Positions 739 to 26,654 of a stretch of DNA of 64,000 nt are shown here, piece by piece. Below the pieces are notes generated by a model. It searched no databases. It saw only the letters and a program-made list of their open reading frames with translations, and had not been told where the DNA came from. The position numbers and the translations under genes are program-made. Within the stretch, counting starts at the first letter, position 1, and each line of letters starts with the position of its first letter. Source of the stretch: Chloroflexota bacterium (lineage in GTDB: Bacteria > Chloroflexota > Dehalococcoidia > Dehalococcoidales > UBA5760); the NCBI GenBank assembly GCA_015222205.1, contig JADFUW010000011.1:511-64510 (forward strand). Reading direction: 5' to 3'.

Positions 739-764
739 TTAATGCTAAACTATGTTAGCATTAA
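739..764 (+). promoter_or_regulatory. Perfect 10-bp inverted repeat (operator-like) overlapping a putative promoter
   Basis: TTAATGCTAA (739-748), 6 nt, TTAGCATTAA (755-764). It is embedded in TTGACA (722-727), 18 nt, TAAACT (746-751). Confidence 0.35.
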
Positions 765-1087
765 CATCTTTGGGGAGAAATTCACTCAAATTAAGCATGA
801 GTAACAAATTCGAACGAAATTACATAGTCAAGCATCAACAAATCAGGGACATGTTGATACAGCTGGCTAAAAACTCCAATAGTGCCTGTTTTCATGTGTC
901 CAAAATAGCCGCTGAGTTGGGCTGGGACCAAAGAACCGTCAGGGCTCACCTCAAAGTTATAGAGATTGACAAGGCTGGTGCCTTCCTTGACCCTGAGGAA
1001 AAGCAATTCTGTACCAAAGAAGGTCTCAAACTGCTAGCTGGCAAAATAGGACTGAAGGAGAAAGCTATTGAGGGACAAGAAGGTTAA
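752..1087 (+). CDS. Small winged-helix/HTH-like protein, possible regulator (start uncertain; alternative ATG at 797)
   Basis: 111-aa ORF directly upstream of the hydrogenase operon. The segment HVSKIAAELGWDQRTVRAHLKVIE looks like an HTH recognition unit. No family was recognised. Confidence 0.5.
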   Translation: MLALTSLGRNSLKLSMSNKFERNYIVKHQQIRDMLIQLAKNSNSACFHVSKIAAELGWDQRTVRAHLKVIEIDKAGAFLDPEEKQFCTKEGLKLLAGKIGLKEKAIEGQEG

Positions 1088-1132: not shown

Positions 1133-2119
1133 ATGGCTAAACCAAAGGTCGCTTTTTACTGGTGTGCTTCATGTGGTGGCTGTGAGGAGGCAGTGGTAGA
1201 CCTTAATGAAGATATTCTGAAAGTGGCGGATGCGGTGGATATTGTCTTATGGCCCGTAGCCCTGGATTTTAAGAGAAAGGATATTGAAGCCCTTAAAGAT
1301 GGTGAGATAGCAGTGAGCTTCATAAATGGGGCAGTAAGGCTGGAAGAGCAAGAAGAGATGGTAAAGCTCCTAAGGAAAAAATCTGGTCTGGTGGTTGCCT
1401 TCGGTGCCTGTGCTCATCTGGGCGGAATACCAGGGTTGGGAAATTTCTGTAGCCGGGAGACAATTTTTCAATGGGTCTATAAGGATTCCCCAAGCGTTGA
1501 CAACCCTCAGGGAGTTACCCCACAAGAGAAGACAGACATTGACAGTGGGGAGCTTACCCTACCGGAATTCTACGACACGGTGAAGTCATTAGACCAGGTC
1601 ATCCCGGTAGATTATTATCTTCCCGGATGCCCACCACCACCCGATTTAATAATGAAGGCCGTAAACGCTATACTAACGGGTCAATTACCAGAAAAAGGAG
1701 CCGTACTGGCTCCCAATATCGCCCTGTGTGATACCTGCCCCAGAAAAGATTCAAAACCAGAAAAATTATCCATAAAAGAAGTAAAAAGACCATGGGAAAT
1801 CAAAATTGACCCAGAGAAATGTTTCCTGGTACAAGGGCTATTTTGTTACGGCCCAGCCACCCGTAGCGGGTGCGGGGAAACATGCATTAACGCTAATATG
1901 CCGTGTCGGGGCTGTTTTGGCCCGTTAGACGGAATCGCCGACCAGGGTGCCAAAGCCCTGGCCATGTTTGTCTCTCTATTAGGGCTGGAAGACGAAGAAA
2001 AGATGACTGATAAAGAGGTCAAAGAATTAATCAATACCATTCCAGACCCGGCAGGAACGTTCTACCGATTCAGCCTGCCGTCCTCTCTTCTCAAAAGAAA
2101 GAGAATGGGGGTTAAGTAG
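1133..2119 (+). CDS. [NiFe] hydrogenase small subunit, MvhG/VhuG-like (group 3)
   Basis: N-terminus KVAFYWCASCGGCEEAVVDL and GACAHLGGIPGL match the Mvh/Vhu small-subunit cluster-binding pattern. A strong AGGAGG RBS precedes the start. Confidence 0.85.
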   Translation: MAKPKVAFYWCASCGGCEEAVVDLNEDILKVADAVDIVLWPVALDFKRKDIEALKDGEIAVSFINGAVRLEEQEEMVKLLRKKSGLVVAFGACAHLGGIPGLGNFCSRETIFQWVYKDSPSVDNPQGVTPQEKTDIDSGELTLPEFYDTVKSLDQVIPVDYYLPGCPPPPDLIMKAVNAILTGQLPEKGAVLAPNIALCDTCPRKDSKPEKLSIKEVKRPWEIKIDPEKCFLVQGLFCYGPATRSGCGETCINANMPCRGCFGPLDGIADQGAKALAMFVSLLGLEDEEKMTDKEVKELINTIPDPAGTFYRFSLPSSLLKRKRMGVK

Positions 2120-2129
2120 GAGGATTACA

Positions 2130-3590
2130 ATGAAAAAAATAACCATAGACCCGATAACCAGACTTGAAGGGCACGGTAAGATAGAGATATTCCTCAACGA
2201 TAAAGGTAACTGTGAGCGAGCCTGTCTTCAGATTCCAGAGCTTCGGGGCTTCGAGCAGTTCTCTGTGGGCAGACCAGCCGAGGAGATGCCCAGAATAACC
2301 ACTATGATCTGCGGAGTTTGTCCCACCGCTCACCACATGGCATCGGCCAAAGCCCTTGACGACCTATTTAAGGTCGAGCCTACCCCGGCAGCGAAGAAAA
2401 TAAGAGAACTTATGTACAACGCCTTCCAGGCAGAAGACCATATACTGCACTTCTACTTCCTGGGCGGGCCCGACTTTATCGTTGGCCCACAAGCACCCGC
2501 CGCGGAGAGAAATGTCCTGGGGGTTATTGCTAAGGCGGGGCTGGAAACTGGTGGCAAAGTCATACAGATGCGAAAAGGGATGAGAAATGTACTAAGAATA
2601 ATCGGGGGCAAGCCGATTATGCCTTCCTGTGCTCTACCCGGAGGGGTATCCAAGGGCATCAATGAGGAGGAACGACAGAAGATTCTTGAGGCGGGGGAAT
2701 ATGCAGTAGACTTCTGTCAGCTTTCCCTCCAGATTTTTGACGACATAGTGCTTAAAAATAAAGGCTATGTTGACCTCATCACCGGTGATGTCTACTCACA
2801 TAAGACATACTATATGGGAATGATAGACAAGAATAACAAGGTAAACTTCTACGATGGCCTTATAAGAGTTGTTGACCCTGACGGCAAAGAATTTGCCAAG
2901 TTTAAGGCTCAGGACTACCTCGACCACATCAGTGAGCATGTTGAGCCCTGGACCTATGTCAAGTTCTCCTACCTTAAGAAGCTAGGCTGGAAGGGATTTG
3001 TTGACGGTAAAGAGAGCGGTGTTTTCCGGGTAGCCCCTCTGGCTAGGCTGAATGCCTCAGACGGGATGGCAACCCCACTGGCTCAGGAAGCCTACGAGAA
3101 GATGTTTTCTGTATTGGGTGGCAAACCGGTTCACAGCACTCTAGCTTTCCACTGGGCACGGCTTGTGGAGGCACTTTACGCATCGGAAAGGGTGGTAGAG
3201 CTTGCCCGCGACCCGGAAATTATCTCACCTGATATTGTAAACCTGCCCACCAAGACCCCAAAAGAGGGCATAGGCGTAGTAGAGGCACCAAGGGGTACCC
3301 TAATTCATCACTACCAAACTGACGACAAGGGAATCCTCACTAAAGTTAACCTGATTGTCGCCACACAGAATAATTCGGCAGCTATTAATATGTCGGTGGA
3401 GAAGGCAGCTAAATCACTCATAAAGAACGGGCAGGTCCCTGATGGGATTCTCAACATGATTGAGATGGCATTCCGGGCCTATGACCCGTGTCATGCCTGT
3501 GCCACCCACTCACTCCCCGGAGGAATGCCGCTTGAGGTGAAAGTCTACGATAATAAAGGAGCCCTGGTAAAGAAGCTCAAAAGGGGCTAA
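2130..3590 (+). CDS. [NiFe] hydrogenase large subunit, MvhA/VhuA-like
   Basis: Contains the RLEGHG, MICGVCPTAHH and C-terminal DPCHACATH Ni-Fe ligand motifs. A 26-aa tail follows the final His, as expected for a protease-processed subunit. Confidence 0.9.
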   Translation: MKKITIDPITRLEGHGKIEIFLNDKGNCERACLQIPELRGFEQFSVGRPAEEMPRITTMICGVCPTAHHMASAKALDDLFKVEPTPAAKKIRELMYNAFQAEDHILHFYFLGGPDFIVGPQAPAAERNVLGVIAKAGLETGGKVIQMRKGMRNVLRIIGGKPIMPSCALPGGVSKGINEEERQKILEAGEYAVDFCQLSLQIFDDIVLKNKGYVDLITGDVYSHKTYYMGMIDKNNKVNFYDGLIRVVDPDGKEFAKFKAQDYLDHISEHVEPWTYVKFSYLKKLGWKGFVDGKESGVFRVAPLARLNASDGMATPLAQEAYEKMFSVLGGKPVHSTLAFHWARLVEALYASERVVELARDPEIISPDIVNLPTKTPKEGIGVVEAPRGTLIHHYQTDDKGILTKVNLIVATQNNSAAINMSVEKAAKSLIKNGQVPDGILNMIEMAFRAYDPCHACATHSLPGGMPLEVKVYDNKGALVKKLKRG

Positions 3591-3641
3591 CAAGAAAAGC
3601 CAAAGAGAACCCTAAATTAAAAGGTGAATTAGGAGGGTAAG

Positions 3642-5459
3642 ATGGCCAAGGACGTTTCTAAGGAGGCAAAGGCTCAGGTTGAGGAGGTAATTTGCCAAGC
3701 CAGCGGCAAAGTATACCTATCTCCCTGCCAGATAGCATGCCCTCTGGGACTAGATATTCAGCGCAGTCATGCCATGATTTCCTTATTGCCTTTGGACCCC
3801 CAAGAGGCAGCAAATCAGATAATTGACATAGGTAACGAAATCTACGAGAAGAGCCCCCTGTTCCCGCTACTATGTGGCTATATTTGTGGGCTTTGTGAGA
3901 AGGAGTGTAATTATAAGGACCAGACCGGAGCCGTAAGGCGAAGAATGCTGATAAGGCTCATTGCCAACGAATATGTTAAGTATCTTGAGACGGCACCGGT
4001 GCTCCCGACCCCGACCAAGGAAAAGGTAGCTGTCATTGGGGGTGGACCGGGGGGATTAATGTGTGCCTATGAATTAAGTAAAAAAGGCTACCGTGTTACT
4101 ATCCTGGAAAGAAACCCCAAGCTAGGCGGCGCCATGCGTCTTATCCCGGCATATCGTCTTCCCCAGGCTATCATTGATTCGGTTGTAAATAACTTAGTCA
4201 GGATTGCCCATATCGAGGTCAAGCTTGGTGTCCAAACAGGTGATAATGACCAAACGCTAGAAGACCTTAAGAACGAAGGCTACAAGGCAATATTCATCGC
4301 TGCCGGTACTCCTTCTCCTCGCCCCCTCACTTTTGAACGAGAACTGGTAGCCGCCGCCGGAGTAGAGGGAATTATGTTCGGGTTAAACCTCCTCTACGAG
4401 GTACTTCAGGGAAATGTTCCTCTATACCTTTATCAAGGCAGGAAGGTGACAGTAATTGGCGGGGGCAACGTCGCCTTTGATGTTGCCCGGACTGCCCGAA
4501 GGTTAGGCGGAGATGTCACCCTTGTCTGTTTAGAGAGCGAGGATAAATCCTCTAAGGATGGCATACCCGCTGATGTAGAAGAGATAGAAGGTGCTACTGA
4601 AGAAGGAATAAAAATAATCTACTCAAGGGGTGTGGAGGAGATAATCAGCAAGGGCGGAAAGTTCAGTAGAATAAAGTGTCCCCGGTGCACCTCGGTCTTT
4701 GATGACAATGGTAGATTTAATCCTAAATGTGACCCCAGTGACGTGATATACGTTGATGGTGATGTGCTACTGGTAACAATAGGGCAAGGTCCGGAGCACA
4801 CCCTATACCAGCAGGAAGGCTTGCTGAATGAGATGGGTAGACTGGATATTGACCCCATTACTCTCATGAGCAAACTTAAAGAAGGAATCTTTATCGGTGG
4901 TGACGTAAGAAGGGTAGGCTTTGCCTCGGAAGCAATGAGGGACGGAGCCACTGCCGCCGAGTCTATCGACCGCTACATTAAAGGTAAGGACATGAAGGCA
5001 GGCAGAGAGGCCAGAGAGTACGAAACTGCCTCCATCCCACAGCGTATTAAGTACAAGCTTCAGCCAGAACTTAAATGGACTCCGGCCAAAGAGAGGCTTA
5101 ATTTTGAGCCGTTTGAAAAAGCATACACCCTGGCAGAAGTGGTAGACGAGGCAAGAAGGTGTCTCTGTTGCGGCCCATGTAAGAGCTGTAAAGGATGCGT
5201 CGTTCTAGGGCTTCAGACTGAAATACCAGAAATCGAGGTTAACGAGGATTTATGCAGCGGCTGTGGAGTTTGTGTCGGCGTATGTCCCTATGAAGCCTCT
5301 ACCCTAGAGACATCCGAAAAAGGAATAAAATCAGCAATTGATGAGCTTAAATGTAAGCGGTGTGGTGTGTGCGTTAGCGCTTGTCCATCTGGTGCTAGGA
5401 CCATTAAAGATGCACTAGCCAAAACTATAGCCGATACCTATGCGGCGTTATCAATATAA
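3642..5459 (+). CDS. GltD/NfnB-like FAD/NAD(P)-binding iron-sulfur oxidoreductase with C-terminal 2x[4Fe-4S] domain
   Basis: N-terminal Cys clusters (CQIACP..., CGYICGLCEKEC). Two Rossmann motifs (VIGGGPGG and VIGGGNVAFD). C-terminal CSGCGVCVGVCP and CKRCGVCVSACP. Confidence 0.75.
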   Translation: MAKDVSKEAKAQVEEVICQASGKVYLSPCQIACPLGLDIQRSHAMISLLPLDPQEAANQIIDIGNEIYEKSPLFPLLCGYICGLCEKECNYKDQTGAVRRRMLIRLIANEYVKYLETAPVLPTPTKEKVAVIGGGPGGLMCAYELSKKGYRVTILERNPKLGGAMRLIPAYRLPQAIIDSVVNNLVRIAHIEVKLGVQTGDNDQTLEDLKNEGYKAIFIAAGTPSPRPLTFERELVAAAGVEGIMFGLNLLYEVLQGNVPLYLYQGRKVTVIGGGNVAFDVARTARRLGGDVTLVCLESEDKSSKDGIPADVEEIEGATEEGIKIIYSRGVEEIISKGGKFSRIKCPRCTSVFDDNGRFNPKCDPSDVIYVDGDVLLVTIGQGPEHTLYQQEGLLNEMGRLDIDPITLMSKLKEGIFIGGDVRRVGFASEAMRDGATAAESIDRYIKGKDMKAGREAREYETASIPQRIKYKLQPELKWTPAKERLNFEPFEKAYTLAEVVDEARRCLCCGPCKSCKGCVVLGLQTEIPEIEVNEDLCSGCGVCVGVCPYEASTLETSEKGIKSAIDELKCKRCGVCVSACPSGARTIKDALAKTIADTYAALSI

Positions 5460-5475
5460 TGTAAGGAGATAAGAC

Positions 5476-5697
5476 ATGCGAGAAAAAGTAGAGACAGCTC
5501 TAGCCCAGATAAGACCGGCCTTACAGGCCGATGGGGGCGATGTTGAGCTGGTAGACGTGACTGACGAAGGCGTGGTAAAACTAAAACTAAAGGGGGCCTG
5601 CAGCGGTTGCCCCATGTCAGCTATGACCCTGAAACACGGCATTGAGCGACTACTAAAACAGCATATACCTGAGGTCAAAGAGGTCGTTGCTGTTTAA
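5476..5697 (+). CDS. Nfu/NifU C-terminal-domain Fe-S cluster carrier
   Basis: 73 aa. IRPALQADGGDVELVDV...GACSGCPMS is the classic Nfu CxxC domain. Confidence 0.8.
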   Translation: MREKVETALAQIRPALQADGGDVELVDVTDEGVVKLKLKGACSGCPMSAMTLKHGIERLLKQHIPEVKEVVAV

Positions 5698-5763
5698 AAG
5701 GGACCCTCAAGAGGTATTTGCCTGATAATTCAGAGGAGATAAAGACTAGGAATGGAATAAGAT

Positions 5764-6177
5764 ATGGTAGATGAACAAGTCCAGGTAGAGCTATTAAATA
5801 AATCTGGATATTCAGATAGAGCGATAAACTATTTTATAAATAAAGTAAATGTCGGTGAGATAGAAAGCCCCAGTGCCTCTTTTTCCTATACCGGCCCCTG
5901 TGGTGACACAATGCAGGTTCAATTAAAAATTGATAGTGGCCGAATCACCGAAGCTAGGTTTCAAGCCATAGGCTGTGCTGGCTCCTATAGTGCCGGCTCG
6001 GCTCTTATGAAAATAATAAAGGGGAAAACCCTAGAGCAGGCTGAAGAAATTAGTGAGGAGCAAATTCTGGACCACCTGGGCAACATCCCACCTCAGAAAA
6101 TACACTGTGTTTGTTTAGCCAAGAGGACTTTAGAGCAGACGATTAAGCAATACAAGAGGGTAAGGGGCAAAGGGTGA
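5764..6177 (+). CDS. IscU/NifU N-terminal-like Fe-S scaffold protein
   Basis: Three scaffold Cys in the expected contexts: GPCGD, AIGCAGS and KIHCVCLA. Confidence 0.7.
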   Translation: MVDEQVQVELLNKSGYSDRAINYFINKVNVGEIESPSASFSYTGPCGDTMQVQLKIDSGRITEARFQAIGCAGSYSAGSALMKIIKGKTLEQAEEISEEQILDHLGNIPPQKIHCVCLAKRTLEQTIKQYKRVRGKG

Positions 6178-6623
6178 ACACGCTCATCTTAGGCATCGGC
6201 AATCCGATTCTCAGCGACGATGGGGTGGGCATCAAAATTGCCCAGAAGCTTGAGGAGCAGAAACCCGGCTTAGATGTAGAACAAACAAATGAAGCCGCCA
6301 TCGCCCTCCTCGACCTTATTACCGGCTATGACAAGCTCATCATCATCGATTCAATAAAAACCAAACAGGGCAAGCCGGGGAAGCTATATAAGCTTAAGCT
6401 GGAAGATTTTAGACCAAACCTAGACTTTTCTTCGTCTCACGGCATGGATATTGCCACTGCCTTTGAAGTGGGGCAAGGCCTAGGATGCAGCATGCCCCAG
6501 TGCGTCAGCATATATGCCGTAGAGATAAAGGATAATTCAACCTTGTCCGAACAGTGTACCGAAGAGGTAGCAGAAAATATACCCTTCATGGTAAAACAAA
6601 TAATAGATGAGGAGAAGCTATGA
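6174..6623 (+). CDS. Hydrogenase maturation endopeptidase (HycI/HybD/FrhD family)
   Basis: ILGIGNPILSDDGVGIKIA and ...SSHGMD motifs. The GTG start overlaps the upstream stop. Confidence 0.8.
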   Translation: MNTLILGIGNPILSDDGVGIKIAQKLEEQKPGLDVEQTNEAAIALLDLITGYDKLIIIDSIKTKQGKPGKLYKLKLEDFRPNLDFSSSHGMDIATAFEVGQGLGCSMPQCVSIYAVEIKDNSTLSEQCTEEVAENIPFMVKQIIDEEKL

Positions 6624-7027
6624 ATAATTTCAAACCTAACGTTGTGATATTTCGCTGTAACTTCTGCTCGCCCATAGGGGCAGAGCATGCCATGGCTTCG
6701 AAATTAAAGGACAATTCCCGCCTAAAACTAATCGGAATCACCTGCACCGGCAGGATAGACCCAACCTTTGTTCTTGATGCCTTTGCTAAGGGTGCCGACG
6801 GCGTGCTGATAGCCGGATGTTCCCCGGGAGACTGCCACTATATCAGTGGTAACTATAAGGCAGGGCGAAATGTAATGCTACTTAAGAAGACACTCTCCCA
6901 ACTCGGTATAGAATCAGAGAGGTTGAGGGCAGAATGGCTGGCCACATCTGAGACACCAAAGTTCCTGTCGTCGTTAAATGAATTCGTTAATGAAGTAATC
7001 AAGCTTGGTCCCCTGACAGCAAGCTAG
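6620..7027 (+). CDS. MvhD-like (methyl-viologen-reducing hydrogenase delta / FlpD) [2Fe-2S] protein
   Basis: VVIFRCNFCS...ITCTGRIDPTFVLDAFAKGADGVLIAGCSPGDCHY is the MvhD signature. Confidence 0.8.
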   Translation: MNNFKPNVVIFRCNFCSPIGAEHAMASKLKDNSRLKLIGITCTGRIDPTFVLDAFAKGADGVLIAGCSPGDCHYISGNYKAGRNVMLLKKTLSQLGIESERLRAEWLATSETPKFLSSLNEFVNEVIKLGPLTAS

Positions 7028-7043
7028 AGAAGGCAAAGATAAA

Positions 7044-8213
7044 ATGACTGAGCCAGCCACCCAAGAGGTAGCAGCCCTTAGGCAAAACGAGGATTACTGC
7101 AGCAGTTGCTCTATCTGTTCCTCCCTCTGCCCCTATGAGGCACTCAAGAAGGATGTAGAAACGGGCAGGATAACCCTGGATATTACCAAATGCCAGGTAT
7201 GTGGACTCTGCTACTCCAACTGTCCGGCTAGCGCCATTGATATTCTCTATTACGACCTAGATTCTTTAATTAAGTATCTGGAGAGGGCAAAGCAGGAATA
7301 TGCCTCCGATACCCTAGTTATTATGTGCCGAGGCAGTGCCCCCGATACCGCCGGGGTAGAAGAGATATTCGGGGTATCAAAATTCATCCCGCTACTGGTC
7401 CCCTGTGTAGGCCGTATTCCAGATGAAATATATCTTAACGCCCTACTTATGGGGATAGGGAAAATAAACGTCCTCGCCTGCGATGAAGACTACTGCCGAT
7501 TTGACAGGGGTAGCTCAGTCACCGCACGCAAGATAATCGCCTTAAATCTTTTGCTAGGGCAGTTTGGCTATGAACAAGAAGTTATAACCCTAAAGCGACA
7601 CAGCCTGAAAGTAAAAGCTGACGCCAACCTGTGTATTGCCTGCGGTAACTGTGTCTTTTACTGCCCTTATGACGCCGCTAGGCTAGAAAGTCCCGGGGGG
7701 ATTAACTTTGACCTAGCCGCCTGCCGCGGTTGCGGCCTGTGCGTTGCTATGTGCCCCGCCGTAGCCCTGGAGCTAGAGAACTGGGAGAAAGACCGTATTT
7801 CAGCCTTAATTACCCGATTAGCCCCAGAAATGAAGCCCCCCAAGATTCTGGTATTTCGCTGTCAGTGGGCTACTTTTCCCCTACTGGACGAGGAACCATC
7901 ACCCAATGTTCGTTTTATAGACTTACCTTGTGCTGCCAGGGTTGATAACTTCCATATCCTAGAAGCTTTTCAGAAAGGCATTAATGGTGTTTTAATCGCC
8001 GCCTGCTCAGAAGAAGATTGCAAACAGAATCGGGCAAGCGGGAAGACACAGCACTCAATGACAGCACTGAGTAAAAGACTGAGCCAAATAGGCTTTCAGG
8101 AGAGACTTCACTTCTGTTCTGTATCTCCAAGATACCCTGAGGAGCTAGACAAGGAACTAGAACAGTTCAGCCAAACGATAAAAGCCATTGGATTAAAAGA
8201 GAGCAATTTATGA
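7044..8213 (+). CDS. Tandem [2x4Fe-4S ferredoxin + MvhD-like domain] x2 fusion protein
   Basis: CSSCSICSSLCP/CQVCGLCYSNCP followed by VIMCRGS...PCVGRIPDE...VLACDEDYCRF. Then CIACGNCVFYCP/CRGCGLCVAMCP followed by ILVFRCQW...LPCAARVD...LIAACSEEDCKQ. Confidence 0.7.
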   Translation: MTEPATQEVAALRQNEDYCSSCSICSSLCPYEALKKDVETGRITLDITKCQVCGLCYSNCPASAIDILYYDLDSLIKYLERAKQEYASDTLVIMCRGSAPDTAGVEEIFGVSKFIPLLVPCVGRIPDEIYLNALLMGIGKINVLACDEDYCRFDRGSSVTARKIIALNLLLGQFGYEQEVITLKRHSLKVKADANLCIACGNCVFYCPYDAARLESPGGINFDLAACRGCGLCVAMCPAVALELENWEKDRISALITRLAPEMKPPKILVFRCQWATFPLLDEEPSPNVRFIDLPCAARVDNFHILEAFQKGINGVLIAACSEEDCKQNRASGKTQHSMTALSKRLSQIGFQERLHFCSVSPRYPEELDKELEQFSQTIKAIGLKESNL

Positions 8214-8226
8214 AAGTGAGCAATGT

Positions 8227-8868
8227 ATGATAGTAACAACGCCAAAACCCCTGGATGAGATTTTAGATTATATCGCTCAATATACTAATATCCTGATAGT
8301 CGGTTGCGATGGCTGTACCCAGCCGCCGCGAGGCCTGAGAGAGGCTAAGACCCTGGGTCAACTACTTGAGCTGGCGGGAAAGCTGAGAAATAAAGACTTT
8401 AACTTCAAGGTAACTACAGCAGCCAAGCAATGCGATAACTATCTGGCAGCTTCTATGCTTAAGCCCCAAATAAATGATGCCGAGGCGGTGCTCTCTCTAG
8501 CCTGCGGCATAGGAGTACAAACCCTGGCCGAGGTTTTCCCTGATGTGCCTATCTTTCCAGCCCAGAACACCCATTTTATGGGGGCAGAGGATAGAGAGGG
8601 CGGTATTTTGGAAGAAAGATGCGCCGGCTGTGGCGATTGCCTTCTCGCAGCTACGGGTGGTATTTGTCCGATTGCCCGATGCAGCAAGGGACTACTTAAT
8701 GGTGCCTGTGGAGGGAGTAAAGAGGGTAAATGCGAGCTCAATCCAGAAAGAGACTGTGCCTGGTGTCTTATCTATGAGAATCTAAAAAAACAGGATAAAC
8801 TACAGCTACTTAAGGAATTCCACCCACCCCGGGATTACCAGCTAAGTGGTTGGAGGGTCACTACATAA
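8227..8868 (+). CDS. MetV-like protein (methylene-THF reductase C-terminal-domain family, Cys-rich)
   Basis: C-terminal half CAGCGDCLL...GICPIARCSKGLLNGACGGSKEGKCE...CAWC resembles the MTHFR_C/MetV zinc-ribbon-like motif (C-P-K-x-L-x-N-G-P-C-G-G). Confidence 0.55.
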   Translation: MIVTTPKPLDEILDYIAQYTNILIVGCDGCTQPPRGLREAKTLGQLLELAGKLRNKDFNFKVTTAAKQCDNYLAASMLKPQINDAEAVLSLACGIGVQTLAEVFPDVPIFPAQNTHFMGAEDREGGILEERCAGCGDCLLAATGGICPIARCSKGLLNGACGGSKEGKCELNPERDCAWCLIYENLKKQDKLQLLKEFHPPRDYQLSGWRVTT

Positions 8869-8891
8869 TAAACTCGGGGTAAGGGTAAGTA

Positions 8892-11195
8892 GTGTTGTTA
8901 AGAGCAAAAAAACTAGCCAAGATAAAGGTGCACGGGGTAGTGCAGGGGGTTGGCTTCCGTCCTTTTATTTACCGACTGGCCTGTGAACACAACTTAGGAG
9001 GCTGGGTGCGTAACACCTCGGGAAACGTGGCTATCGAGGTAGAGGGAGATGAAGCAACCCTTAAGAACTTCCTTAATGACCTTGAAGCTAAAACTCCCCC
9101 TATGGCTCATATTGAAAAGGTCAAAGCCACCTTCCATCCCCCGAAGGGTTATAGCCAATTTGAAATCCTGGCAAGCCAGAGTCAGAAGGGTAAGTACCAG
9201 CTAGTCTCACCCGATATTGCCACCTGTGAAGACTGTAAAGGGGAAATCTTCTGCCCTACTGACCGCCGCCACCGCTACCCCTTCACCAACTGCACTAACT
9301 GTGGCCCCCGATTTACTATCATAGCGGACATCCCTTATGACCGTCCCAAGACAACTATGCGCCAGTTTCAAATGTGCCCCGAGTGCCAGCGAGAATACGA
9401 TGACCCCTTAGACCGTCGCTTTCATGCCCAGCCTAATGCCTGCCCTAAATGCGGCCCCAGCCTAGAGATAGTTAATAGCGAGGGTAACCCCGTTCAGGGC
9501 GATGATGTCGTTGAGATAGCCAGTGCTCTATTAAAAGCAGGGAAAATCTTAGCAATCAGGGGACTGGGTGGATTTCAACTCGCCTGTGATGCCACCAACG
9601 AAAAGGCGATAAACCAGCTGAGGGAACGAAAGAAGCGTCCCGCCAAGCCATTAGCCGTCATGGTAGCCACAATAGGAGATGTGGAAAGGCACTGCCTGGT
9701 ATCAGCCGAAGAAAGAAAACTCCTTGAGTCTCCCAAGTGCCCGATTGTCCTACTGAGGTGGCAGCATAACTCATCTAATATCTCTACAGCAGTAGCCCCA
9801 AAGCTAAAGTATCTCGGGGTGATGCTCCCCTATACCCCTTTACACCACCTTCTCTTACGGGAGACTGACCTGCCCCTGGTCATGACCAGTGGTAACCTTA
9901 GTGAGGAGCCTATTGCTAAGGATAACGATGAGGCCTTAAGAAGACTCAAGGGAATTGCCGATTATTTCCTGCTTCACAACCGGGATATCTACGCCCGCTA
10001 TGATGACAGTGTTTTTATAGTAGAAGATGATATGCCTCAGCCAGTAAGGCGAGCACGGGGCTATGCTCCCTACCCTATTTTTCTTCCCTTTAAATCAAGG
10101 CAAATCCTTGCCTGCGGTGCCGAGGAGAAGAATACCTTTTGTCTGACCAAAGATAAGCATGCTTTCTTAAGCCAGCACATCGGTGATATGGAGAACGAGG
10201 AGACCCTAGAGCACTTTGAAAATACTATTAAGCTCTACGAGAGGCTATTTCGTATTAAACCCGAAATCGTGGCTCATGATATGCACCCGGAATACCTGGC
10301 AACAAAATATGCCCGGCAAATCAGCTCGGAGCGTGAGCTAAATCTGGTGCCAGTTCAGCATCATCATGCCCATATCGTAAGCTGCCTGGTAGAGAATAAG
10401 GTCAAAGGGCCAGTTATCGGGGTAGCCTTTGACGGTACAGGATACGGCACCGATGGCACTATCTGGGGAGGGGAATTCCTGCTGGCTGACTATCATAGCT
10501 TCCAGAGGCTAGGACATCTGGAATATGTGCCCCTGCCGGGAAGCACTGCCGCCATAAAGAAGCCCTATCGCATGGCCTTAAGCTATCTGTACACACTTCT
10601 AGGGGACGACTTCTCGCTAGCAGGTCTCCCCTTAAGCAGGCTCAATCCTGGTGAGGTTGAGATAGTACAAAAACAGCTAAAGCAAGGCATAAATTCCCCA
10701 CCGACTTCAAGCGCCGGGCGACTTTTTGATGCCGTTTCCGCCATGGCTGGGGTGAGGGGGGAAATAGATTATGAAGCTCAGGCAGCCATTGAGCTTGAGA
10801 TGCTGGCTCCCGATGCATTAGATAAGCGTGAGATAAAGGCTTATCCTTTCTCCATTATTGGAGACCAAGGGGTAAAGGTGGTAAAATTAGAGGAGCTAAT
10901 CTCATCGGTATCACGGGATGTTAGAAATCAGGCTCCTACGTCCATAATATCACTCAAGTTTCACCATGCAATGGCTCAGATAATCGCCGAGATGTGTAAA
11001 ACCATCGCTGAAGAAACAGGCATAAATGAGGTGGCGCTAAGTGGCGGCGTCTTCCAAAACCGCTTACTCCTGAAGTTAGCCATCTCAGCATTACGAAAAG
11101 AAGGGCTAAGTGTGCTTACTCACCATTTAGTGCCCTGTAACGACGGCGGCATCTCCCTGGGTCAAGCCGTGATTGCGAACTTCGCTGGGAGTTAG
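8892..11195 (+). CDS. hypF: Carbamoyltransferase HypF
   Basis: 767 aa. Acylphosphatase N-terminus (VHGVVQGVGFRPFIY), two zinc-finger CxxC pairs, and YrdC and Kae1-like regions. Confidence 0.95.
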   Translation: MLLRAKKLAKIKVHGVVQGVGFRPFIYRLACEHNLGGWVRNTSGNVAIEVEGDEATLKNFLNDLEAKTPPMAHIEKVKATFHPPKGYSQFEILASQSQKGKYQLVSPDIATCEDCKGEIFCPTDRRHRYPFTNCTNCGPRFTIIADIPYDRPKTTMRQFQMCPECQREYDDPLDRRFHAQPNACPKCGPSLEIVNSEGNPVQGDDVVEIASALLKAGKILAIRGLGGFQLACDATNEKAINQLRERKKRPAKPLAVMVATIGDVERHCLVSAEERKLLESPKCPIVLLRWQHNSSNISTAVAPKLKYLGVMLPYTPLHHLLLRETDLPLVMTSGNLSEEPIAKDNDEALRRLKGIADYFLLHNRDIYARYDDSVFIVEDDMPQPVRRARGYAPYPIFLPFKSRQILACGAEEKNTFCLTKDKHAFLSQHIGDMENEETLEHFENTIKLYERLFRIKPEIVAHDMHPEYLATKYARQISSERELNLVPVQHHHAHIVSCLVENKVKGPVIGVAFDGTGYGTDGTIWGGEFLLADYHSFQRLGHLEYVPLPGSTAAIKKPYRMALSYLYTLLGDDFSLAGLPLSRLNPGEVEIVQKQLKQGINSPPTSSAGRLFDAVSAMAGVRGEIDYEAQAAIELEMLAPDALDKREIKAYPFSIIGDQGVKVVKLEELISSVSRDVRNQAPTSIISLKFHHAMAQIIAEMCKTIAEETGINEVALSGGVFQNRLLLKLAISALRKEGLSVLTHHLVPCNDGGISLGQAVIANFAGS

Positions 11196-11197
11196 AT

Positions 11198-11428
11198 GTG
11201 TGTTTAGCCATTCCGGTACTTATTAAGTCCATAGAGGATAAAGAAGCTGAGGTAGAAATAGGCGGTATAACCCGCCGCATCAGCCTGCAGCTCACGCCGG
11301 AGGCTAAGGTGGGTGACTATGCCATAATCCACACCGGCTATGCCATAAATATCCTAGACCAAGAAGGAGCCGAGGAAACCCTGAAGCTCCTGGAGGAAAT
11401 AGCCGAGACGGCCGAGGAGGGGGAATGA
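11198..11428 (+). CDS. hypC: Hydrogenase assembly chaperone HypC
   Basis: Invariant MCLAIP N-terminus (GTG start), 76 aa. Confidence 0.9.
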   Translation: MCLAIPVLIKSIEDKEAEVEIGGITRRISLQLTPEAKVGDYAIIHTGYAINILDQEGAEETLKLLEEIAETAEEGE

Positions 11429-12519
11429 GGTTTATTACTGAATTTCGGCGCCCTGAGTTAGCCGAGGGACTAATCTCACAAATCCACCACAAGTCCAAAA
11501 CTGCGGTGCGTTTAATGGAGTTCTGTGGTGGTCATACCGTGACCATCTTTAGATACGGCATCCGCCAGGCTCTACCCAAAACCCTGGAGATGGTCTCCGG
11601 ACCGGGTTGTCCCGTTTGTGTGACCGCCAATGCTGACCTGGATAAAGCCATCGCCCTATCCCAAATCCCGGATGTAATCATCACCACCTTTGGCGATATG
11701 CTCAAGGTTCCAGGTAGCTACTCCAGTCTACAAGAAGCTAAGGCTAGCGGCGCTGATGTACGTGTAGTTTACTCCACTATGGATGCCCTCAAGATAGCCG
11801 AGGAAAACCCTGATAAGTCGGTAGTCTTTCTCGGTATTGGTTTTGAGACCACGGCTCCAACCATCGCCGCATCTATCCTCATGGCTCAGGACAAAGGGAT
11901 ACAAAATTATCATGTTCTCTCCCTGCACAAGCTCTGCCCGCCGGCAATCCGAGCCATTCTTGACTGCGGTGAGGTCAGGCTTCAGGGACTTATCTGCCCC
12001 GGACATGTAAGTGTTATTATCGGCTCCCATCCCTGGGAATCCGTTGCCCGTGACTATAATATTCCCTGTGTCATCTCCGGCTTTGAACCCCTGGACATAC
12101 TGCAGTGCATCAGCATGCTGGTAGCTCAGGTTGAAAAGGGAGAGTCTAGGGTTGAGATTGCCTACCGACGGGGAGTGCACCCCGAAGGGAACCGAGAAGC
12201 ACTCAAAATTATGGAGCAAGTATTTGAGCCCTGCCCGGCTCAATGGCGGGGCATGGGTGAGATTCCCGGTAGTGGCCTAAAGTTAAGGGGGAAATACCGG
12301 CACTTTGATGCTGAGCTTGTCTTTAGTATTGTCCCGGAACCTGCCTGTGAACCCGAAGGTTGCATCTGTGGCGACATCCTGCGGGGGGTTAAGACGCCCA
12401 CTGATTGCCTTCTCTTTGGTAAAGTCTGCACACCAGAGCATCCGGTGGGACCATGCATGGTCTCCTCAGAGGGTAGTTGCTCTGCCTATTACCTTTATGG
12501 AGGTAGTTTTGGAGAATAG
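11425..12519 (+). CDS. hypD: Hydrogenase maturation factor HypD
   Basis: FCGGHT, GPGCPVCV and C-terminal Cys-rich motifs. Overlaps the hypC stop. Confidence 0.95.
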   Translation: MRFITEFRRPELAEGLISQIHHKSKTAVRLMEFCGGHTVTIFRYGIRQALPKTLEMVSGPGCPVCVTANADLDKAIALSQIPDVIITTFGDMLKVPGSYSSLQEAKASGADVRVVYSTMDALKIAEENPDKSVVFLGIGFETTAPTIAASILMAQDKGIQNYHVLSLHKLCPPAIRAILDCGEVRLQGLICPGHVSVIIGSHPWESVARDYNIPCVISGFEPLDILQCISMLVAQVEKGESRVEIAYRRGVHPEGNREALKIMEQVFEPCPAQWRGMGEIPGSGLKLRGKYRHFDAELVFSIVPEPACEPEGCICGDILRGVKTPTDCLLFGKVCTPEHPVGPCMVSSEGSCSAYYLYGGSFGE

Positions 12520-13513
12520 AATACTGCTCACCCACGGCAGTGGCGGCAAGCTAGCCCACGAACTGGTAGAGAAAAGCTTTGTTAAAGCTTTAGCCAATCC
12601 TCTACTTGCCAAACTGGATGATTCAGCCGTTTTTGACCTAAGTGGTAAGCTAGCCTTCACCACTGACAGTCATGTAGTAAGCCCTATCTTCTACCCCGGT
12701 GGCGATATTGGAAAGCTGGCTGTCTGCGGCACAGTAAATGATTTAGCTATGTCGGGGGCTAAACCCCTCTACTTAAGCCTTGCCTTCATCATTGAGGAAG
12801 GACTCCTCCAGGACGAACTGGATAAAATCGTGAATTCCATTCAGAAGGCAACCAAAGAAGCCGAGGTGGAAATCGTTACCGGAGATACCAAAGTTGTTAA
12901 TCGAGGTAGTGCCGATAAGCTCTTTATCAACACGGCTGGTGTCGGCATAATACCACAAGGGGTCAATATCTCCGGAAGCAATGCCAGACCGGGAGATAAG
13001 GTAATTCTAAGCGGGACTATTGGTGAACACGGCATTGCAGTACTCAGCCAGCGGCAGGGGTTAAGCTTCTCCACCCAGCTTGAGAGCGATTTGGCCCCGC
13101 TGGGAAGCTTAGTAGCAGATATGCTGGCTGTTAGCCACAATATTCATTGTCTAAGAGACCCCACCCGAGGCGGGTTAGCCACTATCTTAAACGAACTAGC
13201 GGAGCAGTCAAAGGTAAGCATAAGGATTAATGAGGAAAAAATACCAGTACGCGAAGAGGTTTTAGCTGCCTGTGAGATGCTGGGCCTTGACCCTCTGTAT
13301 ATCGCCAACGAAGGTAAGTTAGTCGCTATAGTGCCCGCTCTAGATGCCACCAAGGTTCTCAAGGCAATGCGAGGCAACCATTACGGGAAAAGTGCCGCTG
13401 TCATCGGCGAAGTCAGGGCAGAAAACCCCGGCCGGGTGATAATGAAAACCAGTCTGGGAACCTCCCGAATAATTGACATGCTGGTCGGCGACCCGCTGCC
13501 AAGAATTTGTTGA
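12497..13513 (+). CDS. hypE: Carbamoyl dehydratase HypE
   Basis: I chose the ATG at 12497 (MEVVLENRILLTHGSGGK...). The C-terminus is PRIC. The track's upstream extension from 12305 lies entirely inside hypD. Confidence 0.9.
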   Translation: MEVVLENRILLTHGSGGKLAHELVEKSFVKALANPLLAKLDDSAVFDLSGKLAFTTDSHVVSPIFYPGGDIGKLAVCGTVNDLAMSGAKPLYLSLAFIIEEGLLQDELDKIVNSIQKATKEAEVEIVTGDTKVVNRGSADKLFINTAGVGIIPQGVNISGSNARPGDKVILSGTIGEHGIAVLSQRQGLSFSTQLESDLAPLGSLVADMLAVSHNIHCLRDPTRGGLATILNELAEQSKVSIRINEEKIPVREEVLAACEMLGLDPLYIANEGKLVAIVPALDATKVLKAMRGNHYGKSAAVIGEVRAENPGRVIMKTSLGTSRIIDMLVGDPLPRIC

Positions 13514-13549
13514 ACCAACTTCAAGTTATTAGTAGAGGCAAACTTATAG

Positions 13550-13891
13550 ATGCATGAACTAGCCATCACTCAAAGTATGCTTGATATTGTTCTGGAGCAA
13601 GCCGAAAAGGCAAGAGCCAAGAAGGTTAGCAACATAAACCTGACTGTCGGGGAGCTATCCGGGTTTGTTGAAGAGTGCGTACAGTTCTACTTCGGCTTCC
13701 TCGCCAAAGAGACTCTTGCTGAAGGGGCTACCCTGTCTTTTACCTCGGTTCCAGCAAGAGCCCGGTGTCAGGATTGCCACAAGACTTTTAAGCTTAAAGA
13801 GTTTGACTGGACTTGCCCCCACTGCGGGGGTAACAATATAGAGATTACCGCCGGTAAGGAACTCTTTGTAGAAAGCATTGAGGTAGAATAA
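13550..13891 (+). CDS. hypA: Nickel insertion protein HypA
   Basis: MHELAITQSML N-terminus and CxxC...CPHCG zinc site. Confidence 0.9.
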   Translation: MHELAITQSMLDIVLEQAEKARAKKVSNINLTVGELSGFVEECVQFYFGFLAKETLAEGATLSFTSVPARARCQDCHKTFKLKEFDWTCPHCGGNNIEITAGKELFVESIEVE

Positions 13892-13955
13892 GTAACAAGA
13901 AATTCACTACAGCAATCCGGTAATAAAGTCCCTGCAAAATATTGAGGTGGCATAA

Positions 13956-14615
13956 ATGGAAATAAAGGTTCTCAAGAACATTCTTAGCGTTAACGAGCAG
14001 ATAGCCCAGAAAAACCGGGGGCTGCTGGACAAAAACAACATATTCACCATAAACATCATGTCCTCGCCCGGCGCCGGTAAAACAAGCCTTATCTTACAGA
14101 CCATAAAGAGGCTGAAAGATAAGACCAGAATTGGTGTTATTGAAGGAGATGTCAGCTCAAGCGTAGATGCAGAAACGGTAGGCAAAGAGGGGGTACCAGT
14201 CATCCAGATAAACACCGGCGGCGGCTGTCACCTTGATGCTAATATGGTAAATAATGCCCTGAGTAACCTGCCCCTGCCGGACATTGACCTGCTCTTTATC
14301 GAAAATGTAGGCAATCTAATCTGCCCTGCCAGTTTTGCTCTTGGTGACCATAAAAGGGTCATCGTGTCAAGCATTCCCGAGGGACATGATAAACCACTCA
14401 AATATCCACTAATGTTCCATGAAGCCAATATCGTACTGTTAAATAAAATTGACCTTCTGCCATACGTAGCATTTGACATGAAGGCTTTCTCTCAGGCAAT
14501 CAGAAACATAAACGAGAAACTAGAAATTATCCCAATTTCCTGTACCACCGGCCAGGGAATTGAAACCTGGGTCTCCTGGCTTGTAGCCCAAATGAGAAAG
14601 AAAAACAGTACTTAG
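13956..14615 (+). CDS. hypB: Nickel-dependent GTPase HypB
   Basis: P-loop SSPGAGKTSL, ENVGNLICP and NKIDL GTPase motifs. Confidence 0.9.
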   Translation: MEIKVLKNILSVNEQIAQKNRGLLDKNNIFTINIMSSPGAGKTSLILQTIKRLKDKTRIGVIEGDVSSSVDAETVGKEGVPVIQINTGGGCHLDANMVNNALSNLPLPDIDLLFIENVGNLICPASFALGDHKRVIVSSIPEGHDKPLKYPLMFHEANIVLLNKIDLLPYVAFDMKAFSQAIRNINEKLEIIPISCTTGQGIETWVSWLVAQMRKKNST

Positions 14616-16999: not shown

Positions 17000-17011
17000 C
17001 TTTTAATTCCT

Positions 17012-18313: not shown

Positions 18314-18332
18314 TTATATTGCTATCTCCATT

Positions 18333-18734
18333 CTATTCTGAGTCTTCTTTGGCTAACTCGGTTACAAATTTATCATACTCATCGCCATTCATTAAATTAT
18401 CAAGCTCCGAAGGTTTGCTCAGTTTTAATCTAACGAGCCAACCATCTCCATAAGGCTCCTGGTTCAACAACATAGGCTCATCAATAGCAGCTTGGTTGAC
18501 TTCTAACACCTCACCACTAGCCGGGGTGAAAAGGTCTACAACTGCTTTCACCGATTCTATCTCACCTATCTTGCCAAACTGTTCTACTTGGGTGCCTGGG
18601 GCTGGCAGGTCAAGAAATACTATGTCTCCCAAATGAGACTGGGCATAATCGGCAATCCCTATTTTCCCCTTATCCCCTGCCTCAAGGCAAATCCATTCAT
18701 GTTCTTTTGTATACTTATATTCTTTTGGGTTCAT
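18333..18734 (-). CDS. gcvH: Glycine cleavage system H protein
   Basis: Lipoyl-Lys context EIESVKAV; YTKEHEW N-terminus. Confidence 0.95.
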   Translation of the reverse strand: MNPKEYKYTKEHEWICLEAGDKGKIGIADYAQSHLGDIVFLDLPAPGTQVEQFGKIGEIESVKAVVDLFTPASGEVLEVNQAAIDEPMLLNQEPYGDGWLVRLKLSKPSELDNLMNGDEYDKFVTELAKEDSE

Positions 18735-19099: not shown

Positions 19100-19106
19100 T
19101 TGTTTG

Positions 19107-26526: not shown

Positions 26527-26562
26527 TCTTATATGACTAATTATAGCCCCCGCCAAGTCACA

Positions 26563-26651: not shown

Positions 26652-26654
26652 ATA

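Follow-up and report, generated by a model that had tools for sequence, protein, structure and literature searches.

An Mvh-type [NiFe]-hydrogenase gene cluster of a Dehalococcoidales bacterium with an NfnB/GltD-like flavoprotein and a tandem MvhD-MetV pair, found without neighboring heterodisulfide reductase genes

MvhD passes electrons to HdrA in methanogens, and group 3c [NiFe]-hydrogenases commonly carry the annotation "heterodisulfide-reductase-linked", also where the bacterium does not produce a heterodisulfide. Which partner might such an enzyme serve when genes for a heterodisulfide reductase (Hdr) are missing from its surroundings? This question is raised by a gene cluster on contig JADFUW010000011.1 of the Chloroflexota bacterium assembly GCA_015222205.1 (Dehalococcoidia; Dehalococcoidales), of which we analyzed positions 511 to 64,510; this stretch of 64,000 nucleotides (nt) is referred to as the window, and coordinates are given within it. 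The best explanation, which on balance we consider probable, is that one operon encodes two modules: an NAD(H)-linked Mvh hydrogenase with a flavoprotein of 605 amino acids (aa), designated GltD605, and a second module in which MetV would act as an electron wire to a MetF protein encoded elsewhere in the genome. This view rests on the following features of the window and on a comparison with 163 related loci overall (designated by L and a number).

752-1087, plus strand: small open reading frame (ORF) of 111 aa, tentatively a candidate regulator (weak DUF3489 match, 19 bits, below cut-off)
1133-2119, plus strand: hydS, MvhG/VhuG-like [NiFe]-hydrogenase small subunit, 328 aa (PF01058, 86 bits; best NCBIfam family VhuG, 214 bits)
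2130-3590, plus strand: hydL, MvhA/VhuA-like [NiFe]-hydrogenase large subunit of group 3c type, 486 aa (PF00374; best NCBIfam family VhuA, 413 bits)
3642-5459, plus strand: GltD605, iron-sulfur flavoprotein of NfnB/GltD/DsrL architecture, 605 aa (Pyr_redox_2, weak Fer4_20, C-terminal 2x[4Fe-4S]; NCBIfam PRK12771, 308 bits; PDB matches)
5476-5697, plus strand: Nfu-type (NifU C-terminal domain) Fe-S cluster carrier, 73 aa (PF01106, 109 bits)
5764-6177, plus strand: IscU/NifU-N type Fe-S scaffold, 137 aa (PF01592, 101 bits)
6174-6623, plus strand: hydrogenase maturation endopeptidase, 149 aa (PF01750; TIGR00072, 99 bits, above its cut-off)
6620-7027, plus strand: free MvhD, [2Fe-2S] connector subunit, 135 aa (PF02662, 139 bits)
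7044-8213, plus strand: tandem 2x[2x[4Fe-4S] ferredoxin + MvhD] protein, 389 aa (Pfam: four Fer4 and two FlpD (PF02662) stretches)
8227-8868, plus strand: homologue of MetV, the Fe-S subunit of MetFV-type methylene-tetrahydrofolate reductases, 213 aa (PF12225, positions 1-95 of 95, 118 bits)
8892-11195, plus strand: hypF (ORF and translation; Pfam labels of the L082 and L083 orthologues; order kept in relatives)
11198-11428, plus strand: hypC (same basis as hypF)
11425-12519, plus strand: hypD (same basis)
about 12497-13513, plus strand: hypE (same basis)
13550-13891, plus strand: hypA (same basis)
13956-14615, plus strand: hypB (same basis)

The original prediction, made from the letters of the sequence, had named the MvhG/MvhA-like pair, the 605-aa flavoprotein, MvhD, the 389-aa protein and MetV, and all of these genes were found on the plus strand where it had placed them, with support from Pfam or NCBIfam. 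It had also described them as contiguous and tightly spaced and had let the cluster end at position 8868. The spacing is indeed tight, with intergenic gaps of -4 to +66 nt across 1133-8868 that fit a single operon, although the genes for Nfu, IscU and the protease (5476-6623) had been overlooked between the flavoprotein and MvhD. The downstream limit has to be moved, as the hypFCDEAB string continues to position 14615 with gaps of -23 to +64 nt. By its layout, the region 1133-14615 would probably be a single operon, encoding a soluble [NiFe]-hydrogenase of the Mvh/Vhu type that is built from modules. A scan of promoters and terminators was uninformative (14 promoter-like sites vs. 18 expected, 19 terminator-like sites vs. 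17 expected), and the top sigma-70-like site of the region (722-751) did not score above chance. The 111-aa ORF at 752-1087 may encode a regulator; homologues of it lie directly 5' of hydS in L005, L011, and L020 and close to the hydrogenase genes in L046 and L052. Nearly all of the relatives with a hydrogenase have nfu after hydL or gltD605, and an IscU-type gene was seen in few of them only (L015, L020, L091). Directly 3' of hypB, a 228-aa ORF (14671-15357, plus strand) matches the Met_synt_B12 activation domain (28 bits vs. a cut-off of 25 bits), and it is kept 3' of the hyp genes in L003 and L005.

Searches with tblastn, using query proteins from related loci, detected no homologues of HdrA-like, CCG-domain, EtfA/B, MetF, NfnA-like, or FdhA proteins in the 64-kb window. 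An Hdr system hidden elsewhere in the window is ruled out by those of these searches that used the HdrA-like and CCG proteins.

The large subunit HydL contains the NiFe-ligand motifs RLEGHG, CGVCPTAHH, and DPCHACATH, as read in its translation, and 25 residues beyond the last of them form a C-terminal tail that is a predicted extension for proteolytic maturation; a maturation protease is encoded at 6174-6623. Among NCBIfam models, HydL scored 413 bits with VhuA, 145 bits with ShyA, 139 bits with FrhA, and 111 bits with the group 3b HydA, with all NCBIfam scores of HydL and HydS staying under the equivalog cut-offs. Against solved structures, the ranking is 7t2r_D (398 bits), MvhA from two methanogens (389 bits for 5odc_F, and 385 bits), HoxH (5xf9_D, 323 bits), and the alpha subunit of SHI (97 bits). 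The earlier assignment to an Mvh or group 3c-style hydrogenase, and not to group 3b, is hence well taken (VhuA 413 vs. sulfhydrogenase alpha 111-145 bits; MvhA 389 vs. SHI 97 bits), and we use the label group 3c-type because of these family scores and the presence of an MvhD subunit. Judged in this way, the enzyme is Mvh/Vhu-like and clearly other than group 3b. A group 3b enzyme with its standard partners was considered and is ruled out by the low scores of the 3b models (111-145 vs. 413 bits for VhuA) and by the finding that no HyhB/HyhG-like genes are present. In all hydrogenase-bearing relatives, hydS is located 5' of hydL. The free MvhD aligns end to end (1-132) with MvhD of PDB entry 5ODC (130 bits); it is encoded with the hydrogenase, and its association with HdrABC is missing within the 64-kb window. 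Free MvhD tracks the hydrogenase, since 14 of the 15 loci with a free MvhD gene just upstream are hydrogenase-positive.

Two known types of soluble hydrogenase invite comparison. The [FeFe]-hydrogenases of group A2, termed 'glutamate-synthase-linked' (HydDB; PMC5037454), and the [NiFe]-hydrogenases of groups 3b and 3d likewise join a soluble hydrogenase to a GltD-type or diaphorase NAD(P) module; unlike these, the catalytic subunit of the window is of the [NiFe] Mvh type, HyhBG and HoxEFU are missing, and HydL scores 97-145 bits against 3b subunits. NiFe-HydABCSL of Acetomicrobium mobile (7T2R/7T30) provides the best-scoring solved large subunit for HydL, but its Bfu-type HydABC partners (NuoEFG-like) are missing from the window operon.

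GltD605 is identical to the NCBI entry 'FAD-dependent oxidoreductase [Chloroflexi bacterium]' (P0121) and has the fold of NfnB and GltD, with a two-[4Fe-4S] N-terminal domain (C29, C33, C78, C82, C85, C89), an FAD domain with the GxGxxG motif, and an embedded NAD(P) domain with a second nucleotide motif, GxGxxA (G273-A278). These parts are followed by a linker motif, CxxCGPCxxCxxC (C507-C519), and the protein ends in a 2x[4Fe-4S] ferredoxin domain (C538-C581) whose homologue in HdrA is likewise C-terminal. The ligand cysteines are invariant: 19 Cys residues and E298 are shared by the orthologues from Dehalococcoidia and Syntrophales, and all of the listed motif residues are kept down to 53% identity. 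Ranked by profile scores against the PDB, 9N5U (9n5u_A, 226 bits) comes first, followed by 9BOV, 8OH5 chain C (8oh5_C, 187 bits), Thermotoga NfnB (4ylf_B, 176 bits), Pyrococcus NfnL (5jca_L, 166 bits), and then GltD and dihydropyrimidine dehydrogenase. The match in 9N5U is the GltD-like NADP(H) domain of a chain named NfnA (Nfn-Bfu), and we take chain C of 8OH5 to be StnC of the Stn complex, going by the title of PMC10482914. NfnAB/NfnSL (4YLF, 5JCA), NfnA of Nfn-Bfu (9N5U), and StnC (8OH5) match residues about 4-455 of GltD605 with 145-226 bits and share its two-cluster, FAD, and nucleotide domains. Unlike the situation in NfnAB, the window encodes no NfnA/PyrK-like partner, GltD605 adds the five-cysteine motif and the C-terminal ferredoxin domain, and its likely partner is a hydrogenase.

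DsrL has its domains in the same order (PMC7596348): an N-terminal 2x[4Fe-4S] domain comes first, then FAD into which the NAD(P) domain is embedded, then ~80-100 aa of linker, and finally the 2x[4Fe-4S] ferredoxin domain at the C-terminus. DsrL acts in dissimilatory sulfur metabolism as an NAD(P)H:acceptor oxidoreductase, and its C-terminal ferredoxin domain docks on its partner (PMC7596348). The genomic partner of GltD605, in contrast, is an Mvh-type hydrogenase instead of DsrAB, and nothing DsrAB-like was present among the scanned ORFs of the window. The relationship to DsrL bears on the nucleotide that GltD605 might use. In NfnB, the YRR residues bind the 2'-phosphate of NADPH, and their replacement in DsrL-1 accompanies the use of NAD(H) (PMC7596348). 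At the position of V-Y-R-R in NfnA/NfnB, GltD605 reads V-C-L-E-S-E-D-K, within a family pattern of L-E-x-E-D/N-K that also sets it apart from NfnAB, and L297, E298, E300, and K302 are invariant in eight orthologues from two phyla. As GltD605 is devoid of YRR in the same manner as DsrL-1, we infer a preference for NAD(H), which is more likely than NADPH to be its nucleotide.

Is GltD605 a genuine partner of the hydrogenase or a chance neighbor? Homologues of the flavoprotein are numerous (2354 at E <= 1e-30), and onto the 80 loci returned by a metagenome scan with GltD605 we mapped the window proteins. One recurrent order, hydS-hydL-gltD605-(nfu)-protease-mvhD, is Dehalococcoidia-like, has 59-80% identity, and occurs either with the genes for the tandem protein and MetV (e.g., L081, L082, L104) or without them. 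Loci with the hydS-hydL-gltD605 order are L003, L005, L008, L010, L023, L024, L040, L058, L075, L081-L083, L086, L094, L104, and L133; hydL and gltD605 overlap by 4 nt in L083. A second order, gltD605-mvhD-hydS-hydL-protease, is represented by about 17 loci (L145-L163) with 52-56% identity, whose proteins were traced by exact look-up to metagenome-assembled genomes (MAGs) of Syntrophales and 'Deltaproteobacteria'. Twenty-two GltD605 loci had enough flank on both sides; hydL is located within 4.5 kb in 11 of them, and seven more adjoin hypF, with a nitroreductase gene 5' of gltD605 and hypCDE nearby. Since GltD605, MvhD, and the hydrogenase are kept together in two gene orders and two phyla, GltD605 would be a genuine hydrogenase partner. 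The tie between flavoprotein and hydrogenase that the original prediction had proposed thus persists in relatives, where orthologues adjoin mvhD-mvhG-mvhA in both Dehalococcoidia-like (65-80% identity) and Syntrophales/Deltaproteobacteria loci (52-56% identity).

The nitroreductase-gltD605-hypF arrangement forms a lineage of its own (L100, L101, L103, L106-L111, L118, L119, L124, L125, L127, L130, L132), in which hypCDE lie nearby on the other strand and no hydrogenase structural genes occur within about 4 kb; several of these loci carry acyl-CoA dehydrogenase and EtfAB genes upstream. Further arrangements add Hdr- or MetF-related genes to the neighborhood of GltD605. Immediately 5' of gltD605-mvhDGA, L158 carries fdhA, the gene for a GltD paralogue of 35% identity, metV, and metF. 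A 1114-aa HdrA with an inserted GltD-like domain, a type known from PMC12054007, is encoded directly 5' of gltD605-mvhD-hydS-hydL-protease in L117 (5884-9228) and also occurs in L099, L120, L122, and L131; loci of the L117 type hence have two different GltD-type modules in one Mvh operon. With such an HdrA in the same operon, GltD605 can evidently coexist with Hdr. The proposal that the flavoprotein and its companions stand instead of Hdr therefore describes the window correctly but does not hold as a general rule.

Each half of the 389-aa tandem protein comprises a di-cluster ferredoxin (Fd) followed by an MvhD domain, and residues 185-387 match positions 567-776 of the NCBIfam model HdrA2, that is, the ferredoxin+MvhD tail of HdrA2. 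All 24 of its cysteines (16 in the ferredoxin and 8 in the MvhD domains) are invariant in 20 homologues, and an AlphaFold model of moderate confidence (pLDDT 66) gave four significant Foldseek matches in the PDB, all of them MvhD chains. The cysteines C27, C30, C69, C93, C132, C135, C138, C147, C152, C161, C169, and C177 of MetV are invariant in 30 homologues with 33-48% identity. MetV of the window shares 58% identity with the MetV half of MetV-MetF fusions, and among 1.8 billion representatives its best-scoring match, and the sole full-length one with at least 50% identity, is such a fusion of 541 aa. The PDB holds no sequence-related solved structure for MetV, and the AF2 model (pLDDT 89.9) found no structural match there at E <= 0.001. 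A similar spacing of cysteines had suggested the N-terminal domain of MetV as a fourth MvhD-like module; this was not supported, with an hhalign probability of 6.9% and MvhD outside the top 50 structural matches. In the model, this domain appears as a generic Rossmann-like alpha/beta fold. MetV domains are also fused to a histidine kinase (HisKA + HATPase_c), a Rieske domain, and a di-cluster ferredoxin (P0329, P0298, P0305), and the MetV module is therefore reused beyond MetF contexts.

How the tandem protein and MetV are distributed was followed in a scan with the tandem protein across one genome per GTDB species. It gave 264 loci; 80 of them were retrieved, the window proteins were mapped onto these, their ORFs were clustered, and recurrent neighbors were labeled with Pfam. 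The nearest loci come from Dehalococcoidales MAGs. In 60 of the 60 loci with enough sequence, MetV is encoded at most 200 bp 3' of the tandem protein; the two form an obligate pair. Where at least 6.5 kb of upstream sequence was available (36 pair loci), 23 loci carry hydS-hydL on the same strand. In at least 21 loci, the pair sits between protease/mvhD and hypF, inside the hydrogenase operon. Free MvhD is encoded in 14 of the 23 hydrogenase-positive loci; in the remaining nine, the tandem protein is the sole MvhD-type connector of the operon. The slot between hydL and the protease is variable in hydrogenase-positive loci: it is occupied by GltD605, by an Etf set, by SufC and SufBD (L009, L013, L067), or is empty, and 12 hydrogenase-positive loci (type D) have no flavoprotein in the operon at all. 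The Etf set of L030-L032 and L035 consists of EtfB, a ferredoxin-fused EtfA, and a 658-aa Fer4/CCG (HdrD-like) protein; L133 has both the Etf set and GltD605. The notion of a single, fixed subunit combination has consequently to be given up, given that 23 of the 36 pair relatives have the hydrogenase but seven have GltD605, that the slot varies, and that GltD605-hydrogenase loci occur without the pair.

Several loci link the pair to MetF and to genes of the Wood-Ljungdahl pathway. The metF gene (PF02219) lies directly 5' of the pair in two Dehalococcoidia loci (L033, L047), and a MetV-MetF fusion of 539-542 aa is encoded directly 3' of the tandem protein in one Acidiferrales and two Bathyarchaeia loci (L068, L072, L076); additional MetV-MetF fusions are P0276, P0318, and P0332. 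Immediately 5' of the pair, L044 carries cdhA, cdhB, cdhC, cdhD, nuoE/F-like genes, and a cooC-like gene. L047 has the cdhC, cdhD, nuoE/F-like, and cooC-like ORF clusters in common with L044, with ~1.6 kb including metF before the pair; in L072, the distance between the cdh genes and the pair is 3.5 kb. In other Bathyarchaeia, the tandem protein is encoded between a thioredoxin-reductase-like gene and NfnA-like plus NfnB-like genes (NfnA-like in L069, L071, L074, L077, L079).

The two modules also meet within single proteins. Natural fusions of GltD605 with an [Fd-MvhD] unit, 708-729 aa long and each followed by MetV, are present in L073 (8447-10633), L095, L102, L126, and L047 (15371-17494). 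In L073, residues 1-~535 of GltD605 run in frame into the second [Fd-MvhD] unit, with 68% identity to the window's; the fusion of L047 is more distant (36% identity) and adjoins the MetV and MetF genes. An assembly artefact is an unlikely source of the L073 fusion, which recurs in L095, L102, and L126 from other samples and with a gene order unlike that of the window. These fusions seem to parallel HdrA2, with an NfnB-like domain replacing the FAD domain of HdrA, and, being followed by MetV, they link the first module to the second.

From these comparisons, we infer a physical complex and a path of electrons. Module 1 would comprise the MvhA/MvhG-like pair, MvhD, and GltD605, with GltD605 in the place that HdrA holds in methanogens. 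Electrons would move from the NiFe site via the [4Fe-4S] clusters of the small subunit and the [2Fe-2S] cluster of MvhD to the C-terminal ferredoxin domain of GltD605, and from there through its further clusters to FAD and the pyridine nucleotide; the outcome would be a reversible coupling of H2 and NAD(P)+. Module 2, the tandem [ferredoxin-MvhD]x2 protein plus MetV, looks like a self-contained electron-input arm of a MetFV-type methylene-tetrahydrofolate (methylene-THF) reductase embedded in a hydrogenase operon, through which electrons from H2 and/or NADH would pass via an Fe-S chain and MetV to a MetF encoded elsewhere. The reason for this assignment is that the pair is also found without a hydrogenase, after metF, fused to MetF, or behind genes for carbon monoxide dehydrogenase/acetyl-CoA synthase (CODH/ACS). 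An exchange of electrons between both modules is argued for by the location of module 2 between protease/mvhD and hypF, by the nine operons that have no other MvhD, and by the GltD605-[Fd-MvhD] fusions.

For module 2, the closest parallel to be drawn is with the HdrABC-MvhD-MetFV methylene-THF reductase of Moorella thermoacetica (Mock et al., 2014, as cited in PMC5736913 and PMC6085437). Both have MvhD-type [2Fe-2S] modules and MetV, and relatives of the pair adjoin or are fused to MetF and follow CODH/ACS genes. Unlike the Moorella system, the window has neither HdrABC nor an adjacent MetF; it has a [NiFe]-hydrogenase and an NfnB-like flavoprotein, and its MvhD occurs three times, two of them fused to ferredoxin.

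A number of findings weigh against a two-module enzyme that works as one unit and ends at MetF. GltD605 was found in just seven of the 36 pair loci with sufficient upstream sequence, and the pair is absent from the GltD605-hydrogenase loci L083, L086, L088, L094, L098, and L133 and from all Syntrophales-type loci; the modules may therefore act independently. In at least 14 genomes, the pair occurs by itself, flanked by lexA/tldD-pmbA on the opposite strand and by thrS-infC-rplT, and 10 kb around it contain no hydrogenase. The lexA/tldD genes are also located 5' of hydS in L012, L017, L028, L040, and L045, and as they are common to both locus types, the hydrogenase and hyp genes were presumably inserted around the pair, or lost from there. 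No MetF gene is present in the 64-kb window, nor in most of the related loci. Finally, HydL matches the Bfu-type NiFe-HydL of 7T2R as well as it matches MvhA, and its subgroup was called from gene context and NCBIfam, not from a tree.

Two more ambitious readings go beyond an NAD(H)-linked hydrogenase with a wire to MetF, and we regard both of them with reservation. The first, for which we see a limited chance, is a hydrogenase-driven methylene-THF reductase supercomplex in which electrons would run from HydSL to MvhD plus [Fd-MvhD]x2 and on to MetV-MetF of the Wood-Ljungdahl pathway. An NfnB-like subunit would replace HdrA in it, and the reduction of methylene-THF by H2, which is strongly exergonic, would be coupled through bifurcation or confurcation to NAD(H), ferredoxin, or H2 turnover. 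The second, which we likewise hold to be rather unlikely, is a true flavin-based bifurcating or confurcating enzyme, comparable to MvhADG-HdrABC but free of Hdr, in which bifurcation would take place at the FAD of the NfnB-like subunit. Such an enzyme might reduce oxidized ferredoxin and methylene-THF (or NAD+) with two H2, giving reduced ferredoxin and methyl-THF (or NADH); alternatively, NAD(P)H oxidation might drive H2 evolution plus methylene-THF reduction. Several features would be in keeping with electron bifurcation at the FAD of GltD605. The operon has three potential redox ports (the NiFe site, the pyridine-nucleotide site, and MetV), and GltD605 belongs to the family of the bifurcating NfnB (4ylf_B and 5jca_L, with the scores given above); the [2Fe-2S] cluster of MvhD might replace that of NfnA, and the Bathyarchaeia tandem protein adjoins NfnA-like and NfnB-like genes.

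The likeness to MvhADG-HdrABC of methanogens (PDB 5ODC, 9SW2) is considerable in parts: MvhA (389 bits), MvhG, and MvhD (130 bits, full length) are homologous, parts of HdrA/HdrA2, among them the C-terminal ferredoxin domain of HdrA, have homologues in the ferredoxin domains of GltD605 and in the [Fd-MvhD] units, and the order gltD605-mvhD-mvhG-mvhA of orthologues mirrors hdrA-mvhDGA. The window differs from it by lacking the thioredoxin-reductase-type FAD domain of HdrA as well as HdrB/HdrC (CCG domains), hence a heterodisulfide site, and by having a flavoprotein of the NfnB/GltD family with a pyridine-nucleotide domain, two extra MvhD domains, and MetV. What speaks most directly against bifurcation is that the best solved relatives of GltD605 (9n5u_A of Nfn-Bfu, 226 bits; 8oh5_C of Stn, 187 bits) are plain, non-bifurcating NADP(H) entry domains, and that GltD605 shares its architecture with DsrL, which is described as oxidizing or reducing NAD(P)H with an acceptor (PMC7596348). 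On both counts, a plain NAD(P)H entry site is indicated no less than bifurcation. Furthermore, the 12 hydrogenase-positive type D relatives have no flavoprotein in the operon, and an NfnA partner is not encoded within the 64-kb window.

We consider it quite improbable that the transcript combines two unrelated systems, in which HydSL-MvhD-GltD605 would be sufficient as a bidirectional hydrogenase linked to NAD(H), with a function like that of group 3b/3d or [FeFe] group A2, and the pair would serve a separate enzyme, MetF or another, with no exchange of electrons. Each module does occur without the other, the pair has its own lexA/pair/thrS-infC-rplT position in the 14 or more genomes mentioned, and GltD-linked [FeFe]-hydrogenases (group A2) are a recognized class (PMC5037454). 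Yet in at least 21 loci the pair lies between protease/mvhD and hypF within the hydrogenase operon, nine hydrogenase-positive loci have the tandem protein as their only MvhD, and GltD605-[Fd-MvhD] fusions followed by MetV recur.

Least of all do we expect a canonical Mvh-Hdr system with hdrABC elsewhere in the genome and GltD605 and MetV as accessory or incidental proteins, since no Hdr gene lies in the 64 kb, GltD605 is kept beside mvh genes in two phyla, which would not be expected of an incidental neighbor, and no source of a heterodisulfide is known for these bacteria. The case in its favor is made by the Dehalococcoidia loci L046, L052, and L054, in which an HdrA-like gene, a CCG-domain protein, mvhD, hydS, and hydL adjoin the pair, by the L117-type HdrA with its GltD insertion 5' of gltD605-mvhDGA, and by reports of group 3c genes beside Hdr/Etf genes in Dehalococcoidia (bioRxiv 10.1101/2021.08.23.457424).

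The remainder of the window contains further redox-related genes. A tight cluster on the minus strand (49394-55445) carries the gamma, alpha, and beta genes of a 2-oxoacid:ferredoxin oxidoreductase, followed by genes for a NuoE-like [2Fe-2S] protein, a 620-aa NuoF/HydB-like FMN protein, and a 244-aa Fer2_4 + 2x[4Fe-4S] protein that corresponds to the N-terminal part of NuoG/HydA without the catalytic domain. With its NuoE/NuoF-like set at 49394-52488 beside the oxidoreductase genes, this cluster looks like a 2-oxoacid:ferredoxin oxidoreductase joined to a Bfu-type NAD(P)H module; similar NuoE/F-like genes are found within the cdh cluster of L044 and L047. Other features of the window are:

15548-19106, minus strand: gcvPB, gcvPA, and gcvH-like ORFs, with a glycine riboswitch ahead of them at 18995-19106
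19368-20895: lipoate ligase and radical-SAM (lipoyl synthase-like) genes, after the gcv region
26089-26978, minus strand, and 27048-28253, minus strand: cluster of seven tRNA genes and adjoining homocysteine-biosynthesis (PF01837) gene
56825-59976, minus strand: A and B subunits of a V/A-type ATPase

The original prediction had not recognized this combination of subunits as a characterized complex, and full-text searches of the literature turned up neither a GltD/NfnB-like protein as partner of Mvh hydrogenases nor the tandem MvhD-MetV pair. The nearest published items are an HdrA with an inserted GltD/NfnB domain from archaea (PMC12054007, PMC9012536) and group 3c genes beside Hdr/Etf in Chloroflexi (10.1101/2021.08.23.457424); HdrABC-MvhD-MetVF is on record for marine Chloroflexi and Moorella (PMC5736913). 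In PMC5736913, metV is restricted to a single clade of marine Chloroflexi, which is contradicted by its presence in the pair loci described here. Judged by gene content and domain composition, we are dealing with known building blocks in a conserved, uncharacterized, and fairly widespread combination.

These data suggest an alternative conserved partner for group 3c hydrogenases, an NfnB/DsrL-like flavoprotein for NAD(H), in Chloroflexota and in Syntrophales/Deltaproteobacteria MAGs. For acetogens, it is a matter of continuing debate which physiological donor supplies MetFV-type reductases with electrons and how their energy is coupled (PMC8760232, PMC5736913). If the link to MetF is true, the cluster would offer a concrete candidate route for electrons from H2 or NADH to MetFV-type methylene-THF reductases, and models of the hydrogen metabolism of abundant subsurface Dehalococcoidia would change. 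Should even the supercomplex exist, it would provide a non-Hdr, H2-linked answer to the question of donor and energetic coupling of MetFV.

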